A stretch of 64,000 nucleotides of DNA from Bdellovibrionota bacterium. GTDB taxonomy: Bacteria; Bdellovibrionota_C; UBA2361; CAKMMH01. Shown here in pieces: positions 6,962 to 64,000 of this stretch (the first letter of the stretch is position 1; each line of letters opens with the position of its first letter). The DNA lies in assembly GCA_034180415.1 (NCBI GenBank), contig JAXFOK010000018.1:12539-76538 (forward strand), read 5' to 3'. The translations under genes and the position numbers were made by a program. The notes beneath the pieces were generated by a model. It did not search any database. It saw only the letters and a list, made by a program, of their open reading frames with translations, and was not told the DNA's origin.

Positions 6962-7129
6962 CTAAAACAAAATAAAACTTTAAAAGGATATTATTACCTA
7001 AGAGATAGCTACACTCTTTTAATCATAGTAACTTATAATTATTTTCTTAACAATCAGATATTACTAAAAAATTTAATCTTTCCGCTCTTTACTTATTATT
7101 TTTATATTGGTATATTAAATCATCATTTT

Positions 7130-7202
7130 GACCCTATCGTCTAGTGGTCTAGGACGCTAGCCTCTCACGCTGGAGACACGAGTTCGAACCTCGTTAGGGT
7201 CA
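7130..7202 (+). tRNA. tRNA-Glu (anticodon CUC)
   Basis: Cloverleaf folds by eye. Acceptor GACCCTA/TAGGGTC, D-arm GTCT..GGAC, anticodon stem CTAGC/GCTGG with loop CTCTCAC (U33, anticodon CTC, A37), T-arm ACGAG-TTCGAAC-CTCGT, discriminator A. Architecture is very close to canonical tRNA-Glu. CCA is not encoded. Confidence 0.85.
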
Positions 7203-7382
7203 TATTCTCTTTATCACATATCAGAAGTCAAGTACAAAAAGACAAGAAACGGCAATCAATTAGCAAAAACCAATATTAGCTATTAGAGAAAATCAGAAAT
7301 CAGATAACAGACACCCAGCACCATCCCCACGAGAGCAGATTCGACGAATAAAAAAACAAGAACAAACAAAGTACAAAATAGA

Positions 7383-7431
7383 CAAGGCATTGAAGAGTAA
7401 AAATTGGCAAGGCGTGAAAAAGACGAGACAT
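7383..7431. repeat. 49-bp direct repeat, copy 1 (caaggcattgaagagtaaaaattggcaaggcgtgaaaaagacgagacat)
   Basis: Matches copy 2 at 47/49 positions; lies in the T-depleted tract after tRNA-Glu. Confidence 0.8.
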
Positions 7432-7559
7432 ACTTAGCTTTATCACAAAAAAAACGAGCGAAGTTAGTCTACACTATACAATCCGTAAAAATTAGTGAGG
7501 CACGAAAAAGTCAAAAATAATTAATTTCACCAAAAAAAACGGACAAGGTGCGGAAATTA

Positions 7560-7608
7560 CAAGGCATTGAAGCGTAAAAATTGGCAAGGCGCGAAAAAGA
7601 CGAGACAT
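7560..7608. repeat. 49-bp direct repeat, copy 2
   Basis: caaggcattgaagCgtaaaaattggcaaggcgCgaaaaagacgagacat, 177 bp downstream of copy 1. Shorter degenerate sub-repeats (gtaaaaattagtgaggcacgaaaaagtc) lie between the copies. Confidence 0.8.
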
Positions 7609-7694
7609 TTGATAGGACTCCACCGGAGGCGTACTATTAGTACGTTGAGGATGGAGTCACTATCAAATAACGAAGTATTTTTCGATGGATTGCC
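7608..7694. repeat. GC-rich structured intergenic element, copy A. Outer stem TTTGATAGGACTCC/GGAGTCACTATCAAA, inner hairpin GTACTA-T-TAGTAC, then motif ATAACGAAGTATTTTTCGATGGAT.
   Basis: About 75-nt alignment to 63470..63550 with conserved blocks GGCGTACT..TGAGG..ATAACGAAGTATTTTT(C/T)GATG(G/C)AT. Confidence 0.7.
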
Positions 7695-7702
7695 AATTTT
7701 TA

Positions 7703-8464
7703 CTAGTCGGAGAAGTCGACAAGACTCTTAGCTGGCGCAAAACGCACCCTACTCTTTGCCTTAATATGAACGATTTCGCCAGTTGTAGGATTTCTTCCGA
7801 TTCTAGCCTTTGTTTTTCTTACATAAAGCTTTCCAAGACCTAAGAATGGAACTTTGTAACCTTTTGAAAGAGCATCTAATATAAAATTTGTAATATCATC
7901 GCAAATTTCTTTTGCTTGGGCTCTTTTTTCAAGTCCACAGAAAGCTTTAATATTATCATAAAACTCTAATTGTGTGTAACTAAGAGTTGAATCATTATTT
8001 GGCTTAATTGCTGAAGTAATCTTTTCAACTTCTTGTTTTTCAACTACTTTTGAAGAATTATTCTTACTTGAAACATTGATTACTTTATCTTGTTTTGAAG
8101 ATTTTAGTGATTTGTTAAGCTGTACGTTACTTACTTTGACATTATCTTTTACCTGGCTTTTTGCTTGAATGCTTGTATCTTTTGCTTTTATATTTAATTT
8201 TGTACTCTTAACTTTTAAATCTTCAGTTTTAGCACTTTTAGTCTGAACTTTTTTGACATCTTTAACTTTAGAAGCAGCGATCTTTTTACTAGCTGATGCA
8301 ATTTGCTTTTTTGATTTAGTATCACTTACCTTACTAACTTTTTTACTTGTGCTCTTTACGCTTGCACTTTTTGAACTAGCTTTTAAAGTTTTTACATTTT
8401 TTTTAGGTTCAAGCTTTTTTGTTTTGCTTGTAGTTACTTTTTTAGCAGATGCTGCCTTAGCCAT
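7703..8464 (-). CDS. hup: HU/IHF-family DNA-binding protein with about 165-aa N-terminal Lys/Ala/Ser-rich histone-H1-like extension
   Basis: C-terminal 90 aa matches the HU fold (..FLGLGKLYVRKTKARIGRNPTTGEIVHIKAKSRVRFAPAKSL..). Start moved to the second ATG, which has a perfect AAAGGAG RBS. The N-terminus is K/S/A/T low-complexity. Confidence 0.8.
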   Translation of the reverse strand: MAKAASAKKVTTSKTKKLEPKKNVKTLKASSKSASVKSTSKKVSKVSDTKSKKQIASASKKIAASKVKDVKKVQTKSAKTEDLKVKSTKLNIKAKDTSIQAKSQVKDNVKVSNVQLNKSLKSSKQDKVINVSSKNNSSKVVEKQEVEKITSAIKPNNDSTLSYTQLEFYDNIKAFCGLEKRAQAKEICDDITNFILDALSKGYKVPFLGLGKLYVRKTKARIGRNPTTGEIVHIKAKSRVRFAPAKSLVDFSD

Positions 8465-11312: not shown

Positions 11313-12758
11313 TTATAATTTTAAATAATTATGGATTGATTTAGCAGCCTTTCTCCCCATTCCCATAGCTAAAATCACGGTAGCTGCCCCTAAAACTATA
11401 TCTCCACCTGCGTATATGCCATCAATAGATGTCTTTAAATTTTCATCAACTACGATTCTCCCCTTCTTATCAACTTCTATTTCAGGCGTTGTCTTTGAAA
11501 TAAGAGGATTTGGATTATTTCCAAGAGCCATAATGACAGCATCAGCTTCAATAAAAAATTCACTTCCTGGAATTTCCTTTGGACTTCTTCTTCCTGATGC
11601 ATCAACTTCTCCTAATTCATACTTTAAACATTCAATCTTTGAAACTCTTTTATTTTCATCGCCAAGAATTCGTTTTGGGTTTGTTAAAAATAAAAATTCA
11701 ACCCCTTCTTCCATCGCATGTTCTACCTCTTCTTTTCTTGCTGGCATTTCATCTCTAGTTCGTCTATAAACAAGTTTAACATTTGCTCCAAGTCTTCTTG
11801 CAACTCTTGAAGCATCCATTGCAACATTTCCACCACCTACTACAACTACATTTTTTACTTTATAAACTGGTGTATTTGACTCTTCTTTGTAACCTTCCAT
11901 TAAGTTTACACGAGTAAGAAATTCATTAGCACTAAAAACACCAACCAAATTCTCGCCTTCAATATTCATGAACAAAGGAAGTCCAGCACCAGTGCTAATA
12001 AAAATAGCTTCAAAGCCATACTCTTCTTTTAATTCTTTTAATGTAGCAGTACGTCCAATAACAAAATTTGTTACAAACTTTACGCCTAACTTTTTTAACT
12101 TTTCAATTTCTTTCTCAACTATATTATTTGGAAGTCTAAATTCTGGGATTCCATAAATTAGGACACCACCAAGTTTATGAAATGCTTCAAACACTGTAAC
12201 ATCATATCCTAGCTTCCTTAAATCAGCACTTGCTGTAATTCCGCATGGCCCACTTCCTATAATTGCGACTTTCTTTCCATTGCTTTTGATTTCTTTAATG
12301 TCAGAATCAAAGTCATTTTCTCTTGCGTAATCTGCGACAAATCTTTCAACTCGTCCTATTGATACTGCTTTGTTTACATCCTTTAAAGATTTTCCAAGTA
12401 CACATTCTTTTTGACATTGTTTTTCTTGAGGGCAAACTCTACCACAAATGCTAGGAAGAAGTGTATCTTCTTTTAGAACTTCATATGCTCCTTTAATATC
12501 ACCTAATGAAACTTTTTTTAAAAAACTAGGGATTTTTACATTTACAGGACATCCTCCCATACAAAGAGGATTTTTACATTCAAGACACCTTGAGGCTTCA
12601 ATTCTTGCTTGCCTTTCAGTGTATGTGCTAGTAACTTCTAGCATATTGCAAATTCTCTTTTGTGCATCTTGTTCTTGTGGTATTTGAACAGAAATTTGTT
12701 GTTTTTCTTTTATCGTTAACGATTCATTATTAAAAATTTTTGATATCGTTTCTTCCAT
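11313..12758 (-). CDS. nfnB: glutamate-synthase-small-subunit-like FAD/NAD(P)H oxidoreductase with N-terminal Cys cluster (NfnB/SudA/GltD family)
   Basis: 481 aa; N-terminal Cys-rich Fe-S region (C..C..C...C), then two Rossmann GxGxxG motifs (IIGSGPCG, VVGGGNVAMD); adjacent to a PyrK-like partner. Confidence 0.8.
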   Translation of the reverse strand: MEETISKIFNNESLTIKEKQQISVQIPQEQDAQKRICNMLEVTSTYTERQARIEASRCLECKNPLCMGGCPVNVKIPSFLKKVSLGDIKGAYEVLKEDTLLPSICGRVCPQEKQCQKECVLGKSLKDVNKAVSIGRVERFVADYARENDFDSDIKEIKSNGKKVAIIGSGPCGITASADLRKLGYDVTVFEAFHKLGGVLIYGIPEFRLPNNIVEKEIEKLKKLGVKFVTNFVIGRTATLKELKEEYGFEAIFISTGAGLPLFMNIEGENLVGVFSANEFLTRVNLMEGYKEESNTPVYKVKNVVVVGGGNVAMDASRVARRLGANVKLVYRRTRDEMPARKEEVEHAMEEGVEFLFLTNPKRILGDENKRVSKIECLKYELGEVDASGRRSPKEIPGSEFFIEADAVIMALGNNPNPLISKTTPEIEVDKKGRIVVDENLKTSIDGIYAGGDIVLGAATVILAMGMGRKAAKSIHNYLKL

Positions 12759-25667: not shown

Positions 25668-25956
25668 ACACTCCTTTCCTTAATAATTTGTGGCGCCCCT
25701 TTAGGGCATCAAATGAGTAGAAATTAACGATTAAAAATAAAACTTCTAAAAATCTCGTAATTTCTCAACTCAAACTAACATTTTGTGCAAAAATTTTTAA
25801 ATAACCTTTATTTTACCCTGGCACCGCGTACTATGTACGCTTATTCAACCCCTAATGAGGTAAATAAATACCGAGTTAATAAACTATATTATTGTTCTCG
25901 GATAAATTTAAAAATATCCCGCAAGGGGTCGACTAACCAAATTGATATAACTCTCC
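25668..25956. other. 289-bp parC-parE intergenic spacer carrying GC-rich palindromes (GCCCCTTTAGGGC; GCGTACTATGTACGC; CCCGCAAGGGG)
   Basis: Perfect palindromes read directly from the sequence. GCGTACTAT.GTACG resembles the GTACTA-N-TAGTAC hairpin in the dispersed repeat elements. Confidence 0.4.
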
Positions 25957-29978: not shown

Positions 29979-30109
29979 ATTAAATTCCTTATAAACACCA
30001 ATTCTAATATAAATTTAAATATATAAGATATGTTATTATATACAATGAAATATTTTTAAATAAAACTATTATTTATAATATTAACTAGTTATATATTTTA
30101 AACGATATT

Positions 30110-30153
30110 CTATTTTATTTTTACGCCCGAATGGGCGAAAATATAAAATAGAG
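30110..30153. promoter_or_regulatory. palindrome P1 (ctattttattt-TTACGCCC-GAAT-GGGCGAAA-atataaaatag) in a divergent promoter region
   Basis: Imperfect long inverted repeat with a GC core ACGCCC/GGGCG. Confidence 0.5.
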
Positions 30154-30178
30154 ATAGATTTTTATTAGATATTTTTAA

Positions 30179-30224
30179 GCTCTATTTTAGATTTACGCCC
30201 AAATGGGCGTAAATCTAAAATAGC
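30179..30224. promoter_or_regulatory. palindrome P2: perfect 19-bp inverted repeat CTATTTTAGATTTACGCCC-aaat-GGGCGTAAATCTAAAATAG
   Basis: Perfect 19-bp arms with a 4-nt loop, 26 bp from P1 and sharing the TTTACGCCC..GGGCGTAAA core. It lies 78 bp upstream of the DUF4143-type ATPase gene. Confidence 0.55.
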
Positions 30225-30301
30225 ATATTGTTAAATTAAATTATTTATGTAATATTTAACTTTACTACCAAATAATTTTATAAATCATATAGAGAGATTA
30301 C

Positions 30302-31561
30302 ATGCGAATAAAAAGAGATTTATATCTAAATAAACTAATAAGGCACAAGCATAATGGATTCATAAAAATCATTAGTGGCGTTAGGCGCTCAGGAAAGTCA
30401 TTTTTACTTTTTGAATTATTCAAAGAACACTTATTAGAATCAGGCATTAAAAATGATCATATAATTTCGATTGCATTAGATAACAGAAAGTACGTTAAGC
30501 TTCAAGATCCCGATCTTTGTTATGAATACATAGAATCAAATATTAAAGATAATGATATGTATTATCTTTTTATAGATGAAGTGCAACTTATGAATAATTT
30601 TGAAAGTGTTTTAAATGGTTGCCTTTATATTAAAAACCTTGATGTCTATGTTACTGGCAGTAACTCTAAGTTTTTAACTACCGATATAGTAACTGAATTT
30701 AGAGGAAGAGGCGATGAAATTAAAATCCATCCTCTTAGTTTTTCAGAATATTATAGTGCTGTAAATGGTAGCTGGAACAAAGCTCTTGATGAATATTTAA
30801 CTTATGGCGGGATGCCGGCCTTATTTTCATATGATACACATACCGAAAAAGAAGAATATTTAAAAAGATTATTTTATGAAACTTACATTAAAGATTTAGT
30901 AGAGAGAAATAAAATAAAGAATGAAATCGAGTTTAGTGAACTTTTAGATGTTCTCGCATCAAATATTGGAACACTTACTAACCCTAAAAAACTCTCTGAT
31001 ACTTTTTCTAGTGTACAAAATAACAAAACCATTTCAGAACCAACTATAAAACTTTACTTATCATATCTTTCAAATGCTTTTCTTATAAATAAAGTTTTAC
31101 GATACGATATAAAAGGGAAAAAATATTTAAACACTCCATTTAAATGCTACTTTATAGACACGGGACTTCGCAATGCAAGATTAAACTTCAGACAATTTGA
31201 ACCTACACACTTAATAGAAAATGTCATATATAATGAACTTTGCATAATGGGATATCAAGTTGATGTTGGAAATATTGAAATTAGAGAACAAAACCAAGAC
31301 AAATCATATTCTAAGAAACAACTTGAAGTGGATTTTGTTGTAAATGCTGGAAGTAAACAATACTATATCCAATCTGCTTATATGATGCCAACATTAGAAA
31401 AGCAACAACAAGAAGAAAAATCATTACTACATATTGATAATTCATTTAAAAAGATAATTATTGTAAACGAAGATATTATTCCAAGGCACCAAGAAAACGG
31501 GATTACAATTTTAGGCCTTAAAGATTTTTTGTTAAACAAGAATAGTCTTGATTTAGCGTGA
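30302..31561 (+). CDS. AAA+ superfamily ATPase of the DUF4143 type (predicted ATP-binding protein)
   Basis: 419 aa; Walker A GVRRSGKS, Walker B LFIDEVQ, and the conserved C-terminal region typical of DUF4143 ATPases. Paralog at 59711..60970. Confidence 0.8.
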   Translation: MRIKRDLYLNKLIRHKHNGFIKIISGVRRSGKSFLLFELFKEHLLESGIKNDHIISIALDNRKYVKLQDPDLCYEYIESNIKDNDMYYLFIDEVQLMNNFESVLNGCLYIKNLDVYVTGSNSKFLTTDIVTEFRGRGDEIKIHPLSFSEYYSAVNGSWNKALDEYLTYGGMPALFSYDTHTEKEEYLKRLFYETYIKDLVERNKIKNEIEFSELLDVLASNIGTLTNPKKLSDTFSSVQNNKTISEPTIKLYLSYLSNAFLINKVLRYDIKGKKYLNTPFKCYFIDTGLRNARLNFRQFEPTHLIENVIYNELCIMGYQVDVGNIEIREQNQDKSYSKKQLEVDFVVNAGSKQYYIQSAYMMPTLEKQQQEEKSLLHIDNSFKKIIIVNEDIIPRHQENGITILGLKDFLLNKNSLDLA

Positions 31562-31603
31562 AATAAACGAGGCTTGGGAAATAGTAAAGCATTTGAGGGG
31601 AGG

Positions 31604-31684
31604 ATCACCGCAAGCTACACTAAAGCACAGCAAGGATAACGCTCCCTCACATAGCGAAGCATCTTTTCGATGCATCGTTTATTT
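31604..31684. repeat. GC-rich structured element, partial copy C (TGAGGGGAG..CTCCCTCA outer stem; ATAGCGAAGCATCTTTTCGATGCATCG containing the perfect palindrome CGATGCATCG at 31668..31677)
   Basis: Shares the motif (A)TA(A/G)CGAAG.AT.TTTTCGATGCATC with the copies at 7668..7694 and 63517..63546. Confidence 0.5.
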
Positions 31685-31686
31685 TA

Positions 31687-33672
31687 CTAGATAGCCTTCT
31701 TTATAGCATCTTTAACTGCGTTAATATCAGCTTTACTTAATGTGATTCCATTAACTTCAACATTAACGCCCTCTTCCCATTTAGGAAGGAAGAATGTACC
31801 TTCAACATAAACTTTATCTTGTAATTTTTCTGAATCAATAAAGTTTAGAACTTGAGAAAGTAAGTTTGTTTCTTCTTTTGTTCTACCTGCAAGAGAAACT
31901 TTAACTGAAACTTTTCCCTCTTTCTTTCCTGTGTTAAAGATATCTACAGAGCTTGTGCTTGTAGGCTGAGAATGATAATAAGTGTGAAGTAAATGATGAG
32001 CTTTTTCTCCACCAATCTCGCCTAAGAACTTCTCATAACAAGCCTTAATATCAGGGTTATCTTGAGAGTTTCTTAATTCCATACTCTTATCATTATTATA
32101 AATCCCAGCACTTCTTTTTTGTCTATAATCAAAGTCTGTGTTTCTGATTTGTCCTGCACCATTTATGCAACCTCCAGGACATGCCATAACTTCAATTAAG
32201 TCATAGTTACATTTTCCAGCACGAATTTCATCGCAAACTTTCTTAGCATTTGCAAGGCCACTAACAAGAGCTAAGCGAATTGTCTTTCCTGCAACAGTAT
32301 ACTGTGCAGTCCTAATTCCCTCTTGTCCTCTAACTTCTACAAAGTCACTATTTTGAAGTTTCTCACCTGTTAATTTCTCTACTGCAAACCTAAGTGCTGC
32401 TTCTGTAACACCACCTGTTACACCAAAAATCACACCACCACCTGAGAAATCACCAAATGGCTTATCAAATTTATCAGGCGCTACTTTCTTAAAATTAATC
32501 CCCGCGCCCTCAATCATTTGAGCAAGTTCTTGAGTTGTTAAAACTACATCTGTGTCACGAATTCCATCATGAGTAAAACGCTCTAATGCTGCTTCGTGTT
32601 TCTTTGCAGTACATGGCATAATTGCAACATTAAAGATATCTTTCTTCTCTACTCCAAGCTCTCCTGGAAGCGCATCCTTAATTACGCCACCAAACATTTG
32701 CATAGGGGAACGACAAGATGATAAATTATCCTTTAAATCAGGATAGAAAAGCTCAACATAACGAACCCACGCTGGGCAACATGATGTAAATTGAGGAAGT
32801 TTCTCTCCCTTAATTACACGATTAACAAACTCTGTTGCTTCTTCTACTATTGTTAAATCTGCACTAAATGATGTGTCAAACACTAAATCAAACCCTAGCA
32901 TTCTTAAACAAGCAGCAATCTTATTTGTTAAAACCTCCCCAGGTTCCTCGCCAAATGCTTCCCCTAGAGATACTCTAACAGCTGGTGCCATATGAACTAC
33001 TGTCTTTTTAGTAGGGTCATTTAATGCAGCCATTACTTTTTCAATTTCATTCTTAGGTAAGATTGCACCTGTTGGACAAACTGCAGCACAACGACCGCAA
33101 AGCACACAATCAACTTCTGATAGTGGTTTATCAAGACATGGTGTTACATACGCATTTGATCCTCTTTTTGCAAAATCTAAAACGCCAATTCCTTGCACTT
33201 CATTACAAGCTCTAACGCAGTTTCCGCAAAGTACACATTTACTTGGGTCTCTTGTCAAAGAATCAGATGAATTATCAATAGGTCTTGGTTTTCTTGTTGG
33301 TTTAAATCTTACATTTTCAACACCTATTACTCTAGTTAATTTTTGAAGCTCGCAAGTGTTATTCTTATCGCATGTTGGACAAGACTTATTGTGGTCTGCA
33401 AGTATTAACTCTAAAGCAACCTTTCTTAGCTTTCTAATTTCATCTGTGTTTGTTAAAACTTTCATACCATCTTGTGGCTTTGTTGTACAACTTGTAACAA
33501 TACGTCCGTCAATATCAACAAGACATAAACGACACGCTCCATATACGCTTAAATCTGCATGATTACAAAATGTAGGAATATCAATTCCTGCTTTTTTTGC
33601 AAGCTCTAATATACTACGCTCACCATTAATAGGAATCTGTTTGCCATTTATTGTAATTATTCCATCACTCAT
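31687..33672 (-). CDS. hydA: [FeFe]-hydrogenase catalytic (H-cluster) subunit
   Basis: 661 aa; N-terminal 2Fe-2S and 4Fe-4S ferredoxin domains; H-cluster motifs TSCCPAW, MPCTAKKHEA and EVMACPGGCINGAGQ. Confidence 0.9.
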   Translation of the reverse strand: MSDGIITINGKQIPINGERSILELAKKAGIDIPTFCNHADLSVYGACRLCLVDIDGRIVTSCTTKPQDGMKVLTNTDEIRKLRKVALELILADHNKSCPTCDKNNTCELQKLTRVIGVENVRFKPTRKPRPIDNSSDSLTRDPSKCVLCGNCVRACNEVQGIGVLDFAKRGSNAYVTPCLDKPLSEVDCVLCGRCAAVCPTGAILPKNEIEKVMAALNDPTKKTVVHMAPAVRVSLGEAFGEEPGEVLTNKIAACLRMLGFDLVFDTSFSADLTIVEEATEFVNRVIKGEKLPQFTSCCPAWVRYVELFYPDLKDNLSSCRSPMQMFGGVIKDALPGELGVEKKDIFNVAIMPCTAKKHEAALERFTHDGIRDTDVVLTTQELAQMIEGAGINFKKVAPDKFDKPFGDFSGGGVIFGVTGGVTEAALRFAVEKLTGEKLQNSDFVEVRGQEGIRTAQYTVAGKTIRLALVSGLANAKKVCDEIRAGKCNYDLIEVMACPGGCINGAGQIRNTDFDYRQKRSAGIYNNDKSMELRNSQDNPDIKACYEKFLGEIGGEKAHHLLHTYYHSQPTSTSSVDIFNTGKKEGKVSVKVSLAGRTKEETNLLSQVLNFIDSEKLQDKVYVEGTFFLPKWEEGVNVEVNGITLSKADINAVKDAIKKAI

Positions 33673-36233: not shown

Positions 36234-36573
36234 GATTCTTTCTCCGATATATATGTTAATGTACTAAAATATTTAAATTTATTAACGAAAAACCTTAGTA
36301 AAATCTTTTAAGACTCTAGCTTTTAAAAAATAAAAAATTGAAAGGTAAAAATATCCTATTTCAAATTTTATAACTAAATTTAAAAAGAAAATTAAAAGAA
36401 ATTACCAACAATTTTAAACTCTAAGAATTTTAACAGCCCCCCCACGATCCGTCAAGATAGCTAAGGAAACGCGCCAAATTCCTTCTTATGCTTACAAGCT
36501 AGTACGTGTATTTTATTTTAAAATTCACTAACGAAATAGTGTTTGAATTATATTGAATTTTTCATTAAAATTT

Positions 36574-37929: not shown

Positions 37930-38154
37930 TTAATCCATGCAAGTGTCGCAAGGCGGCTTATGACAAATGTAACAACATTCTTCACAAAGACCGTGACAAA
38001 CGCAATTACTCGTCTGAGAGTGATTGTTAGCGGAAAATTCGACATCACAACCATCATCGACGCATTGGTTGGAACTCTCAAAAGATAAATTTTTGCTACA
38101 AGCATTAAAGTCATCATCAAAGATGTCCAACACATGAGGATCGAGCGCAATCAT
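37930..38154 (-). CDS. Cys-rich acidic small peptide (74 aa; 11 Cys, C-terminal ..CVCHGLCEECCYICHKPPCDTCMD); candidate RiPP precursor
   Basis: Lies 5 bp downstream of a PqqD-like gene. This frame is conserved in the paralogous remnant at 42901..43019 (MIALDPHVLDIFDDDF.. vs MIVLNSCVIDVFDGSF..). The overlapping 77-aa ORF 37917..38150 was rejected. Confidence 0.5.
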   Translation of the reverse strand: MIALDPHVLDIFDDDFNACSKNLSFESSNQCVDDGCDVEFSANNHSQTSNCVCHGLCEECCYICHKPPCDTCMD

Positions 38155-38158
38155 AGCA

Positions 38159-38540
38159 CTATTCCTTATTAGTAGAGGTTAATGAAACAACATTACTATT
38201 AAGAAGTCTTAAAAAGAACTTCTTATATTGGGTAACAGTTAAGTCGTTAGTAGATACTAACTTTTTTTCAATGCAACTTTCAACTAATTTGTATCCGTCA
38301 ACATCTAAAAAAAGCCAACCACCATTTTCGCTTGGCATTACCGCTCGAAATCTTCCTTTCAAGTTATTACCTTTTGAAAATCAAGAAAACAATCATTAGG
38401 AATTTCTTCTTTTTGAATTTTTATCTTCACATTTTCCTTAAACAACTCGAAAGCCAAATCTTTTGATAAGACATCACACAGAGGATCAAGACCATCAATT
38501 AATCCTGTATTATCCTCTCCCCGATATCGACACCCTCCCC
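38159..38540 (-). pseudogene. PqqD-like RiPP recognition element (RRE) protein, frameshifted relative to the paralog at 43006..43404
   Basis: Two frames give ..GLIDGLDPLCDVLSKDLAFELFKENVKIKIQKEEIPNDCFLDFQKVIT* and (TTG)KGRFRAVMPSENGGWLFLDVDGYKLVESC..FFLRLLNSNVVSL. These align colinearly with the intact paralog, and no ATG precedes the N-terminal part. A shorter product from the internal ATG (MPSENGG..) remains possible. Confidence 0.5.
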
Positions 38541-38546
38541 TACAAT

Positions 38547-39050
38547 TTACAAAGAGCTTGCAGTATTAAAAATATCATGTACATTAAGCTTCGTCGTTAC
38601 CATATTGCATGTAACATCAAAACCATTATTTAATGCACATTTAATCCCGTCAACTGCCTTTTTGAAACCACCTTTCACACCGCTTACCAATTCGTACACT
38701 TCCTCGCATGAACCCATAAACGATGTTAAGATTCTCCTTAAGCCAAGTTCTTTAAGTTCTCTTGCAATATGATCATTAATATATGTCAAATTTGAATTCA
38801 TCGACATATTAATATGATTTTCTTTTGCAAGAATCAAAAGGTGCTTCACAATTTTGTAATTAAGAAGCGGCTCACCACCAGTAATCACGATACTTTTAAT
38901 TTTATGCTTTTTGATTTCACTAAAAAGCTTATTAGCAGTATATAAAGTCATATGACTTGAGTGAACATTATCTGAATAATCCTTATCAAGCCAATCTCCA
39001 CGCCAAAAATTGTAACAATGTTTGCATTTAATATTACAAACACCGATAGC
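38547..39050 (-). pseudogene. radical SAM enzyme remnant (N-terminal core only; SPASM/C-terminal half missing)
   Basis: The track ORF MTLYTANKLF..ITGGEPLL.. is in frame with an upstream CNIKCKHCYNFW (CxxxCxxC). A TAA lies immediately 5' of the motif (..SVQL*AIGVCNIKC..) with no start codon. The protein ends after about 160 aa of rSAM core and overlaps the PqqD-like gene. Confidence 0.65.
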
Positions 39051-42900: not shown

Positions 42901-43019
42901 TCAGTGACAGATATGCCGGTAGCAATTACAACCACAGTAAAATGCATTATGAAATTCTAATTACTAGCTTTAAAGCTACCATCAAACACATCAATAACGC
43001 AAGAGTTAAGTACAATCAT
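42901..43019 (-). pseudogene. remnant of a second Cys-rich precursor-like peptide (broken by a stop and a frameshift)
   Basis: MIVLNSCVIDVFDGSFKASN* then, in the adjacent frame, ..EFHNAFYCGCNCYRHICH*. The N-terminus parallels the leader of the 37930..38154 peptide. It overlaps the PqqD-like gene end by 14 bp. Confidence 0.4.
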
Positions 43020-43404
43020 AACGTTGTTCCTTATGACTAGGGGTTAATGAAACTATATTACTGTTAAGAAGCCTTAAGAAGAACTCCTTATTTTCAGTAA
43101 TTACCTGAGCATTAGTAGACACTAATACTTTTTGCACACACTGTTCTATTAAGTTGTAACCATCAACATTTACAAATAGCGACCTACCATTTTTACCTAG
43201 TATTACAGCACCAAAGTCTTCCTCTCGAGTTACCACTCCTTCAAAATCAAGATAGTAATCATTAGGAATTTCTTCCATATATTTTATCTTAACCTTATTT
43301 TTACTATATAACTCAAGAGAAATATCTTTCGAAGATACCTCAAAAAGCGGATCAAGTCCATCGACTGACTTCTGAAAGCTACCTTTTCCTAAAATAAATA
43401 TCAA
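43006..43404 (-). CDS. PqqD-like RRE protein (intact copy; probable true start at internal ATG 43278, giving about 90 aa)
   Basis: ..DFEGVVTREEDFGAVILGKNGRSLFVNVDGYNLIEQCVQKVLVSTNAQVITENKEFFLRLLNSNIVSL.. fits the PqqD/RRE pattern (V..RE.DGG.LL.n..g..f.LN..G..IW.......T...I......FL..L...GLI). The annotated start is TTG without an SD. Confidence 0.55.
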   Translation of the reverse strand: MIFILGKGSFQKSVDGLDPLFEVSSKDISLELYSKNKVKIKYMEEIPNDYYLDFEGVVTREEDFGAVILGKNGRSLFVNVDGYNLIEQCVQKVLVSTNAQVITENKEFFLRLLNSNIVSLTPSHKEQRYDCT

Positions 43405-59710: not shown

Positions 59711-60970
59711 GTGTACTCAATAAAACGTCATATTGCTGATATTATAAAATCACGTTCAAAAAATAGTAAATCTATTCTTTTAACTGGTCCAAGACAAGTT
59801 GGAAAATCAACTCTCTTTAAACATTTATTTAAAGATGCAAGACAAGTAACTTTTGATGATAACTTATTACTCTCACAAGCAACAGATGACCCTAAATTAT
59901 TTTTAATGGATAATCCTTGCCCTCTTATGATTGATGAAGTACAAAAATGTCCTATGATTTTTAATAGCATAAAAATCATTCTTGATAATACTGATAAATA
60001 TGGAAATTTTTTTCTCACAGATTCTCAAAAATTTCACTTAATGGCTAATGTTAGTGAATCACTTGCAGGAAGAATTTCCGTAATGGAGCTAGATGGTCTC
60101 TCACTTCGTGAAATTAATAATGTTGATTTTAATAAACACTTTGTTCCATCATCTGATTACCTTAAAAAACGAGAAGAAAAACTAAAAAATTATTCTTCAA
60201 ACATTTGGGATATTATTCACAAAGGAAGTTACCCAGAGCTTTATGCAAATGATAACAAAGATTGGCAAGATTTCTATCGCTCTTATGTTAAGACTTATTT
60301 AGAACGTGACGTAAACAGTCTAATAAAAGTTAAAAACAATCTTACTTTTATTAAATTTATGACCGCAATCGCTGCAAGAACTGGACAAGTAATAAATTAT
60401 GCTAACATAGCTTCTGAAGTTGGTATAAGCGAAGTGACTATAAAAGAATGGATTTCCATTCTTGAAAAAAGTGGCATTATTTATATTTTAAAACCATACA
60501 CACCAAGTGTGTTAAACCGCGCAATAAAAAGACCTAAGATTTATTTTAAAGACACAGGACTTTGCTGTTACCTAACTCGCTGCCTCACTCAAGAAACTCT
60601 TAAAAACGGTGCAATGACAGGTGCTATTTTTGAAACATTTGTTGTTAATGAAATTTTAAAATCATACACAAATGAAGGGTTAGATTATGATTTTAATGTT
60701 TTCTATTACAATGGAAAAGATAAGTTAAAAAAAGATGGAGACTCATCAAATCAAGCAGGCGAGATAGATTTAATTATATACGAAAATGGCACTCTATATC
60801 CTATAGAAATAAAACTCACCTCATCTCCAAAAGCCAATATGACATCAGCATTTAAAGTGTTAGATAAAGTGCCAGAAACTCAACGTGGCATGGGAGCAAT
60901 CATTTGCCTAATCGACAAGAAAACTCACCTTAGAGAAAATCTTGTGGCACTTCCTATAGAATATATATAG
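59711..60970 (+). CDS. AAA+ superfamily ATPase of the DUF4143 type (second paralog; GTG start)
   Basis: 419 aa; Walker A GPRQVGKST, Walker B LMIDEVQ; same architecture as 30302..31561. Confidence 0.8.
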   Translation: MYSIKRHIADIIKSRSKNSKSILLTGPRQVGKSTLFKHLFKDARQVTFDDNLLLSQATDDPKLFLMDNPCPLMIDEVQKCPMIFNSIKIILDNTDKYGNFFLTDSQKFHLMANVSESLAGRISVMELDGLSLREINNVDFNKHFVPSSDYLKKREEKLKNYSSNIWDIIHKGSYPELYANDNKDWQDFYRSYVKTYLERDVNSLIKVKNNLTFIKFMTAIAARTGQVINYANIASEVGISEVTIKEWISILEKSGIIYILKPYTPSVLNRAIKRPKIYFKDTGLCCYLTRCLTQETLKNGAMTGAIFETFVVNEILKSYTNEGLDYDFNVFYYNGKDKLKKDGDSSNQAGEIDLIIYENGTLYPIEIKLTSSPKANMTSAFKVLDKVPETQRGMGAIICLIDKKTHLRENLVALPIEYI

Positions 60971-63276: not shown

Positions 63277-63469
63277 AATGTCCTTTCGTAAAAAATGACT
63301 AAAATTGGCTAAAGTGAAAAACCCCTTTATTCTTTTGTATCACATAATTAAAACTTAATAAAACGTATTTTAAATAAATGTTATAACTTTTAGATTTTTT
63401 TTAGTATTTTCATCCTATTTATGAAAAAAACAAAGTTAGAAGTGTTTAAAATAAGATACATATGAGGGG

Positions 63470-63550
63470 GAGCAACCAAAGGCGTACTTATGCTACAGTG
63501 AGGCTTGATCTCCTTAAGATAACGAAGTATTTTTTGATGCATCCTCTCTA
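63470..63550. repeat. GC-rich structured intergenic element, copy B (..AAAGGCGTACTTATGCTACAGTGAGG..AAGATAACGAAGTATTTTTTGATGCATCC)
   Basis: Colinear with copy A (7608..7694). More GC-rich hairpins follow downstream: GCTGTACTA-CT-TAGTACAGC at 63604..63623 and the CGATGCATCG palindrome at 63660..63669. Confidence 0.65.
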
Positions 63551-64000
63551 TTTTTAGGTGCGAGGCGCGATAATTTCAAGGCATTTTAGGGGAGACGAAC
63601 GGAGCTGTACTACTTAGTACAGCGAGTATCGGCTCTCTCTAAAATAACACAGAAATTATCGATGCATCGCCCCTAAAAACAAAAAAAAAGCTGACTTAAG
63701 AACTTATTATTATCCTTCAGCCAGCTCAAACAAACTAAAGAAACTTGTTTTTTACCTCGCAAGTTCCTATATTCATAGGCGTAGTTTGCCCCACCCTTTC
63801 TCTGTATTTGTATTTGCACATATAATTAAATGATAACATCTAAAAAAGGATTCTTTTTTTTAAAAAAATTTTTAACTTTTATGCCAAAAGGTATGAATGT
63901 GTGTGTGTGCGGTAAATAGGAGGAAACTTTTGGCATAAAGTCATTATTTTTTAAATTATCCTCTACATGCATCTACTAACAAGTAATAAAGCAAGCTTTA

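Follow-up and report, generated by a model that had tools for sequence, protein, structure and literature searches.

A 64,000-nt stretch of contig JAXFOK010000018.1 (assembly GCA_034180415.1, Bdellovibrionota bacterium, positions 12,539 to 76,538), hereafter called the window, carries several copies of an imperfect palindrome of about 130 nt that recurs next to unrelated genes in this species and in a sister species. The family is probably a lineage-specific, non-coding and non-autonomous interspersed repeat of the kind represented by MITEs (miniature transposable elements with inverted repeats) and repetitive extragenic palindromic (REP) sequences, with a predicted role as a bidirectional transcription terminator. 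It would thus be a selfish sequence that is tolerated by its hosts and probably used by them to end transcripts. Comparison of related contigs shows that the sequence was copied to several unrelated loci and gained or lost between close relatives, and also that it was amplified locally into tandem arrays of partial copies. A REP- or MITE-like nature, or else a family of small structured RNAs, had already been proposed in a first-pass annotation of the same DNA, and dispersal beside housekeeping genes, filled and empty sites, differences in tandem number and truncated copies support the interspersed-repeat reading, whereas the boundaries of the unit and the list of its members needed correcting.

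Architecture of the repeat and its copies in the window

The anatomy of the unit was read from an alignment of eight full copies: A, C and B2 in the window, D to its left, and four on the sister-species contigs L051 (two copies, L051p and L051m), L056 and L057. Each folds as a single long rod of about 51 base pairs, and the folds of A and B2 replace the unit of about 80 nt assumed in the first-pass annotation with one of about 130 nt. The outer stem, in its typical form GTAAAAATTGG.../...CCAATTTTTAC, is followed by a second stem, GCGCRAAAA/TTTTYGATGC, which contains a bulged A and a G·U pair kept in seven of the eight copies. Further inward lie a purine-rich internal loop, CAAGGCA/TAACGMAG (UAACGMAG in RNA), conserved across the alignment, then a hypervariable third stem, a GGAG/GAG loop and an apical GTACT...AGTAC hairpin. 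Every copy is palindromic, yet the terminal sequences vary: GTAAAAATTGG/CCAATTTTTAC is found in A and L056, variants of GAAAATTGA in L051, TATAAAAAAGGG in D and TTTTTAGG/CCTAAAAA in B2 and L057. The idea that the outer stem represents an older host terminator into which the core was inserted later was ruled out, as AAAAATTG is present at four loci. The strand of the element is well defined, with covariance-model scores of about 135 bits in one direction and about 45 bits in the other. No open reading frame (ORF) within the element was called by gene callers in any copy seen. The guanine-cytosine (GC) content of the elements, 41-44% against 30.2% for the window, confirms that they are richer than their surroundings, although the earlier description as “far more GC-rich” was overstated.

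Copies in the window were located with two covariance models (R1 and R2) and an nhmmer profile, down to E<=10. Three full copies and one truncated copy were recovered, all on the + strand and with covariance-model scores of 80-155 bits (E 1e-17 to 1e-33) for the full copies, in addition to an orphan 5' arm at a marginal score. Full copy A (7574..7703, +; GTAAAAATTGGCAAGG ... TTGCCAATTTTTAC) scores 134.9 bits with R2 on the + strand and 43.5 bits on the - strand, and a stretch of 181 nt that encloses it forms one rod of -68.7 kcal/mol (z -9.7). The copy ends on position 7703, where the stop codon (7703-7705) of an opposite-strand HU-family gene begins. Full copy C (31558..31687, +) is more degenerate (R1 123.7 bits, R2 81.9 bits; fold -39.5 kcal/mol, z -1.8) and makes up the entire spacer between two convergent genes, whose stop codons both lie within its ends: its 5' end contains the TGA (31559-31561) of an AAA_14/DUF4143 gene, and its 3' end is overlapped by the TAG of hydA on the minus strand (31687-31689). 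The relative listed previously at 31652-31677 is real and corresponds to the 3' part of this copy. Similarly, CGATGCATCG at 63660-63669 is the 3' part of full copy B2 (63551..63679, +; R2 133.1 bits, fold -59.1 kcal/mol, z -10.1). In B2 the polarity of the outer stem is reversed, with the T-run on the 5' side and the A-run on the 3' side, and the copy is located away from gene 3' ends, an RNase E/G-type gene lying about 870 nt downstream of it (context from contig L046).

Directly upstream of B2 lies the truncated and degenerate copy B1 (63439..63545, +; R2 41.1 bits, model positions 16-120), in which the 5' outer arm is missing and whose fold does not surpass those of shuffles (z -0.3). The motifs that the first-pass annotation quoted as shared between its copy A (7608-7694) and copy B (63470-63550) are indeed present in both. 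The GTACTA..TAGTAC hairpin ascribed to both is imperfect in its copy B (GTACTTATGCTAC), and the perfect one belongs to B2.

The surroundings of copy A consist of two tandem units of 177 nt (7355..7708, that is 7355-7531 and 7532-7708, +), detected as a direct repeat (D2) with 177-nt spacing. Both units begin with the 5' arm of the element, and the second alone continues into the complete copy A; positions 7560-7608 match 7383-7431 at 96%. The first unit contains the orphan 5' arm A0 (GTAAAAATTGGCAAGGCGTGAAAAAGACGAGACAT; 7397..7431, +), which matches nhmmer profile positions 2-35 and continues into unrelated sequence; the region 7384-7504 scores 21.4 bits with R1. Two degenerate fragments resembling the 5' arm, GTAAAAATTAGTGAGGCACGAAAAAGTC and AGGTGCGGAAATTACAAGGCATT (compare GAGGCGCGATAATTTCAAGGCATT in B2), may be present within 7484..7573 (+), as suggested by a blastn match of 7573-7599 to 7484-7510 at 85% and a weak nhmmer match at 7537-7568 (E 0.21), the assignment being made partly by eye.

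Several neighbouring features of the window are recorded here in their own right. A tRNA-Glu(CTC) gene (7129-7203) is followed by about 350 nt of A-rich, T-poor non-coding DNA (7204-7570) that runs into the tandem fragment array. The gene ending inside copy C (30302-31561) has a paralog at 59711-60970, both coding for AAA_14 and DUF4143 ATPases of 419 aa, and in ten related-strain contigs the gene at the position of 30302-31561 was called at only 249 aa. Upstream of this AAA_14/DUF4143 gene, between divergent genes, a long inverted repeat (30077-30256) has 77-nt arms that are 75% complementary (-55 kcal/mol, z -8.0) and holds two small hairpins, TACGCCCRAATGGGCG, flanked by ATTTTA-type runs, which may represent a second, smaller type of palindromic repeat. 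Downstream of B2, the stretch 63690-63860 is strongly alike, by eye and at roughly 93%, between L046 (3996-4170) and L057 (2190-2330); this non-coding sequence, which includes a GCTGA...TCAGC hairpin, is located upstream of the RNase E/G-type gene and could belong to a long rne leader or represent another small RNA.

Two further sites had been listed as relatives, GCGTACTATGTACGC near 25825 and the interval 36497-36540. Neither gave a score with either covariance model or with nhmmer at E<=10, and both were rejected as members, having only short words in common with the family that are chance matches. The GC-rich stretches at these places (25785-25950 in the parE-parC spacer and 36430-36500 upstream of the hydrogenase operon) are without an Rfam match, and the minus strand of 25785-25950 folds moderately (z -2.75).

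Copies in related genomes and contact with stop codons

Further copies exist outside the window and in a sister species, so that the absence of other copies, named in the first-pass annotation as a refutation of its reading, does not apply. Many near-identical metagenome contigs of the source species are available, and copy C is present in 10 of 10 related-strain contigs. On contigs of this kind, copy D follows an ABC ATPase gene about 1 kb outside the left edge of the window, and tandem units of about 188 nt made of partial copies lie upstream of it. In the sister species, a copy adjoins mutL (L056), two inverted copies occupy the spacer between tkt and a DUF5658 gene (L051), and a single hybrid copy is found at the orthologue of the 63.5-kb locus upstream of rne (L057). 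The family is small, non-coding, multi-copy and dispersed (about 130 bp; window copies, D and three sister-species loci), and orthologous sites that are filled or empty in different species occur at tkt/DUF5658 and downstream of hydA, two of the properties expected of MITEs. Upstream of the element beside mutL, L056 50-410 is a GC-rich region with long inverted repeats (CCTATGTCGCTCGCTTACTCTCGCTTAAG / CTTAAGCGAACGATAGTGAGCGACATAGG) and GGGGT/ACCCC hairpins, whose sole Rfam match, obtained on both strands, is to a generic model of long-hairpin microRNAs.

The host lineage is isolated, with HydA relatives at 83, 80, 79 and 77% identity and then none above 55%. A metagenome pattern scan returned 30 matches, with three genuine contigs (ODAI01..., sister species). 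The genome pattern, CATCRANNNNNNCTNNGTTATN{10,30}CTCRNYGTA, which would miss copies like C, gave 33 single matches in unrelated taxa among 185,579 species-representative genomes (the source species being absent from these), all of which fail the model, and six matches in viral contigs, none of them genuine. No family member was found in about 80 kb from four more distant relatives, and exact look-ups with the HU and PepP proteins returned mostly short contigs. Family members turned up in these searches in one narrow clade alone, made up of uncultured bacteria with about 30% GC, to which the repeat appears to be confined.

The same data bear on whether a family exists at all or whether independent hairpins or terminators merely resemble one another by chance or base composition. 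Blastn aligns copy A with the previously delimited copy B over only 21 nt (E about 5e-4), and two of the five relatives listed earlier were indeed chance word matches. However, a degenerate pattern built over the shared motifs finds three sites in the window and none in 100 dinucleotide-preserving shuffles, the same architecture of about 130 nt and the same loop sequences recur in eight distinct full copies at seven loci in two species, and all of the roughly 60 pattern matches in other organisms were rejected by the model. A chance origin of the resemblance can be given practically no weight and is already refuted by the model scores together with the conserved loop sequences.

At six of the seven loci, the ...GATGCATC...CAATTTTTAC end of the element meets a stop codon on the opposite strand, always in the same orientation. 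This differs from the earlier impression that 5' and 3' intergenic positions are occupied alike, and the enrichment at gene 3' ends rests on a small sample of seven loci. Contact with the stop codon, by abutment or overlap, is within 0-3 nt for A, C, D, L056 and L051p. The contacts involve HU for copy A (7703-7705), hydA for copy C (31687-31689), the ABC ATPase gene for copy D (L081 19773-19775), mutL for the L056 copy (563-565) and the DUF5658 gene for L051p (1970-1972). At L051m, tkt extends 30 nt into the element, which supplies its last five codons and the stop, and the C-terminus of Tkt reads ...EKLMMHSK with the element compared to ...EKILSLF in contig L092, which has no element at this site. 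The neighbours hydA, HU, tkt, mutL and the ABC ATPase gene are syntenic housekeeping genes. The sole exception to this placement is the B2/L057 locus, which precedes the RNase E/G-type gene by about 870 nt.

Gain or loss of the element is seen at the tkt-DUF5658 gene pair, which is kept in four lineages. The spacer between the two genes measures 441 nt with three copies in L091 and holds two copies in the L051 strain, whereas spacers without the element measure 29 nt in L099 (83% Tkt identity) and 90 nt in L100 (70%). L092 codes for a Tkt protein with 94% identity to the one at the filled locus, and its C-terminus is the native one. The tkt junction falls in a native GAAAAA(A)TT that resembles the element end, and this overlap hints at a target preference or at homology-assisted insertion. 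Copy C is missing downstream of hydA in sister species (HydA identity 77-83%), where ordinary short terminators are found instead. At locus A, the spacer between the HU gene and a TPR gene measures 750 nt in the window and in L082 compared to 927 nt in L081, L083, L084 and L087; the strains differ by exactly one 177-nt unit, and those with 927 nt have three units. Arrays of this kind would probably arise by unequal recombination between the common 5' arms. Several assemblies stop in the element or just after it. L100, which is without the repeat family, codes for a reverse transcriptase of the group II intron type (RVT_1 and GIIM domains; 1032-2333).

Predicted termination, maintenance of pairing and mobility

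Wherever a copy abuts a gene, the rod is preceded by an A-run and followed by a U-run, and this holds for both strands. As read from the sequence, four to six U residues follow the rod directly on either strand in A, C, D, L056, L051p and L051m, and copy D is a textbook case of this arrangement (A6-GGGCGTGGCGCG / A6-GGGCGTGG ... CCACACCC-T6). A simple scan found no other terminator-like sites between the convergent genes at A and C. Because of these runs, the lack of another terminator at A and C and the plain terminators that take the place of the element downstream of hydA in relatives, the element is probably a bidirectional terminator. In the proposed mechanism, transcription of either strand would yield the rod of about 51 pairs with a GC-rich base, followed by 4-6 U, so that the element could serve as an intrinsic terminator in both directions and provide the 3'-end hairpin for the genes on its two sides. 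Terminator activity may then also be the reason why copies survive mainly at gene 3' ends, and why the A- and U-runs are swapped in B2/L057, which alone lies upstream of a gene. The outer stem with swapped polarity at this locus is conserved in two species and leaves B2 and L057 without a U-run after the rod, which agrees with the terminator reading, albeit at a single locus.

Among the eight copies, standard pairs in the rod occupy 88.4% of cells compared to 72.4% in shuffles, and both sides of the pair changed in 33 of 51 pairs compared to 18.1 in shuffles, with the observed value reached in none of 500; slid controls pair at 40-45%. Covariation therefore shows that the hairpin is maintained, and it does not indicate by which agent. 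Template switching in long quasi-palindromes can produce compensatory changes without selection on RNA. Since correction of quasi-palindromes at the DNA level would give the same signal, the covariation is not proof of an RNA function.

It is nevertheless conceivable that the elements are primarily functional RNAs, either selected cis-acting modules of 3' untranslated regions and terminators or genes for protein-bound small RNAs, and that their dispersal is secondary. Three of the four helices vary strongly in a compensatory manner around conserved internal loops and one conserved G·U pair, and a single locus compared between two strains has one pair changed from U-A to C-G. Moreover, GC content is above the genome background, and RNA of the + strand is slightly more stable in 7 of 10 copies, by 0.6-7 kcal/mol. 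On the other hand, wobble pairs favour neither strand (a nearly balanced 23 G·U versus 18 A·C cells, or 16 versus 18 after removal of the one conserved pair), and reading from the flanking genes is antisense to the strand with the conserved G·U pair. The truncated and orphan half-copies, the variation in tandem number and the ORF fused into an element are typical of junk-like repeats. Close relatives do without the element at orthologous sites, where ordinary terminators suffice, the promoter scan gave no convincing promoter at the elements, and quasi-palindrome template switching could mimic the compensatory changes, so that a primary RNA function appears unlikely. In agreement with the earlier statement that no known RNA class is recognizable, tRNA-Glu was the only match to Rfam 15 at gathering score in the whole window, and searches of the isolated element regions at E<=10 gave best scores of 13-17 bits with E above 0.3; the two doubtful sites were likewise without a match.

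As for mobility, no target-site duplication was found: the flanking dinucleotides are TA/TA, TA/TA, TG/TA, TG/CA and GA/TC and do not form direct repeats. A TA target-site duplication in the style of IS630/mariner was rejected, as the variant flanks remain complementary instead of being direct repeats. No partner transposase was found.

Another reading is that of folded single-stranded DNA acting as a recombination site, like attC or like REP sequences with their REP-associated tyrosine transposases (RAYTs), that is moved by a dedicated enzyme encoded elsewhere. Structure is kept more than sequence, conserved bulges and mismatches could mark one strand, there is no target-site duplication, and conserved terminal repeats would not be needed. 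Furthermore, the place right after a stop codon recalls a gene cassette with its attC site, the tandem clusters recall bacterial interspersed mosaic elements (BIMEs), and all six gene-end copies are oriented alike with respect to the abutting gene. This explanation is considered quite unlikely, as the attC cores (RYYYAAC / GTTRRRY) are absent from the ends, the flanks are syntenic housekeeping genes and not cassettes, the unit is three to four times the length of a REP, and no integrase, HUH transposase or reverse transcriptase is present in about 85-90 kb of the source species or in the sister-species loci; a Y1/HUH (RAYT) gene was also absent among the Pfam-called genes of these loci. An integron attC site in the strict sense was rejected on the grounds of the missing core sites and the housekeeping context. 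A related and rather speculative proposal is that of a hairpin-mobilised “portable bidirectional terminator,” in which a putative enzyme or host protein would read the folded strand via its bulges and purine-rich loops and place the element precisely at stop codons in a single orientation, involving neither terminal repeats nor a target-site duplication. If true, hairpin-mobilised spread combined with stop-codon targeting would constitute a mode not described for bacterial MITEs.

Several points weigh against an interspersed repeat of the MITE/REP type with a terminator role. There is no classical transposon signature, the complementary flanks extend the stem instead, and the termini are unlike between copies (GTAAAAATTGG, TATAAAAAAGGG, TTTTTAGG). 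An IS4-family element, the sole insertion sequence observed in related strains, was rejected as the parent, its ends (CCTGTTTTCGAC) being unrelated to the repeat. The filled and empty sites are compared across species, and the exact insertion borders are unreadable. Regarding termination, B2 and L057 cannot terminate in either direction, judging from their sequences, and a simple terminator scanner, limited to loops of 3-8 nt and to a maximum of 20 counted pairs, left the rods as wholes unflagged and reported two short sub-hairpins inside copy C only. The combination of variable stems with conserved asymmetric loops (CAAGGCA / UAACGMAG, GGAG / GAG) and a G·U pair in 7 of 8 copies fits a functional RNA or a protein-recognised folded strand equally well. 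Finally, the sample is small, comprising eight distinct full copies from contigs that cover part of the genome.

The IS4-family element mentioned above is a strain-level polymorphism unrelated to the repeat: an insertion of about 1.7 kb (DDE_Tnp_1, 514 aa; L035 3170-4878) with ends CCTGTTTTCGAC/GTCGAAAACAGG and a 10-bp duplication, AAATTTGACA, is present in L035, L038 and L040 and absent from the window (38784-38793). Direct repeats are located at 38087-38409 and 42952-43275, about 4.87 kb apart and with 73-81% identity; they adjoin or overlap minus-strand ORFs, a radical-SAM fragment of 134 aa (38547-38951) and an ORF of 132 aa (43006-43404).

Comparison with known repeat systems

REP sequences and BIMEs resemble the present family: they are extragenic palindromes forming tandem clusters at gene 3' ends, they attenuate transcription in some cases, and no target-site duplications accompany them. 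Their units of 20-40 nt are, however, tied to RAYT genes, whereas the element measures 130 nt and no RAYT was seen. With attC sites, for example the repeats of about 124 bp in Vibrio cholerae, the element shares its similar size, its imperfect palindrome right after a stop codon, the precedence of structure over sequence and the conservation of extrahelical bases; it differs from them in having no RYYYAAC/GTTRRRY cores, cassette array or integrase.

ERIC elements are MITEs of enterobacteria and Correia elements MITEs of neisseriae; in both, the terminal inverted repeats are conserved and the target-site duplication is TA, and an IHF site is present in Correia elements. Like the present family, ERIC/IRU and Correia (NEMIS) elements are imperfect palindromes of 100-170 bp that form long RNA hairpins, occupy transcribed intergenic sites near gene ends and can alter the 3' ends or the stability of mRNAs (PMC3184786). 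The element differs from both in that its flanks extend the stem and its termini vary. We know of no sequence resemblance to the ERIC consensus.

The bcr1 repeat of the Bacillus cereus group is about 155 bp long, group-specific, strain-variable and transcribed, and its secondary structure is maintained by base-pair compensatory changes (PMC3184786). A long hairpin with compensatory changes is likewise found in the element, which differs in that no direct repeats correspond to the 5-bp direct repeats flanking bcr1. To our knowledge, abutment to stop codons has not been reported for bcr1.

The closest known behaviour appears to be that of the pneumococcal SPRITE, a terminator-like repeat enriched near the 3' ends of convergent genes, whose sole terminal repeats are AAAA/TTTT, which shows no identifiable target-site duplication and for which co-option as a terminator was proposed (PMC3049150). 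The likeness is one of described features: both are non-coding interspersed repeats of about 100 bp confined to one species group, in which a hairpin with a U-rich tract looks like an oversized terminator and the termini consist of little beyond A-runs and T-runs. In contrast to SPRITE, the rod of the element comprises about 51 pairs instead of 18, is GC-richer than its genome where SPRITE is AT-richer, and is symmetric with a U-run on both strands and conserved internal loops; the element also overlaps stop codons, and its half-copies form tandem arrays.

For the clade itself, the element has practical consequences: it breaks metagenome assemblies, as contigs end in it or just after it, and it can change protein C-termini, as in Tkt, so that annotators should mask or model it. 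Unusual features among repeats of this kind are the strict one-orientation abutment to stop codons, the strong compensatory variation around conserved loops and the variant with swapped polarity, which occupies the single locus at which ending transcription would do harm. Should both the terminator role and an insertion mechanism be demonstrated, the family would help to explain how bacteria acquire and exchange 3'-end signals. As a small bacterial repeat, the element is of a kind that is already well known; the family itself is new, occurs in a new lineage and is a clean addition to the small set of terminator-like interspersed repeats.

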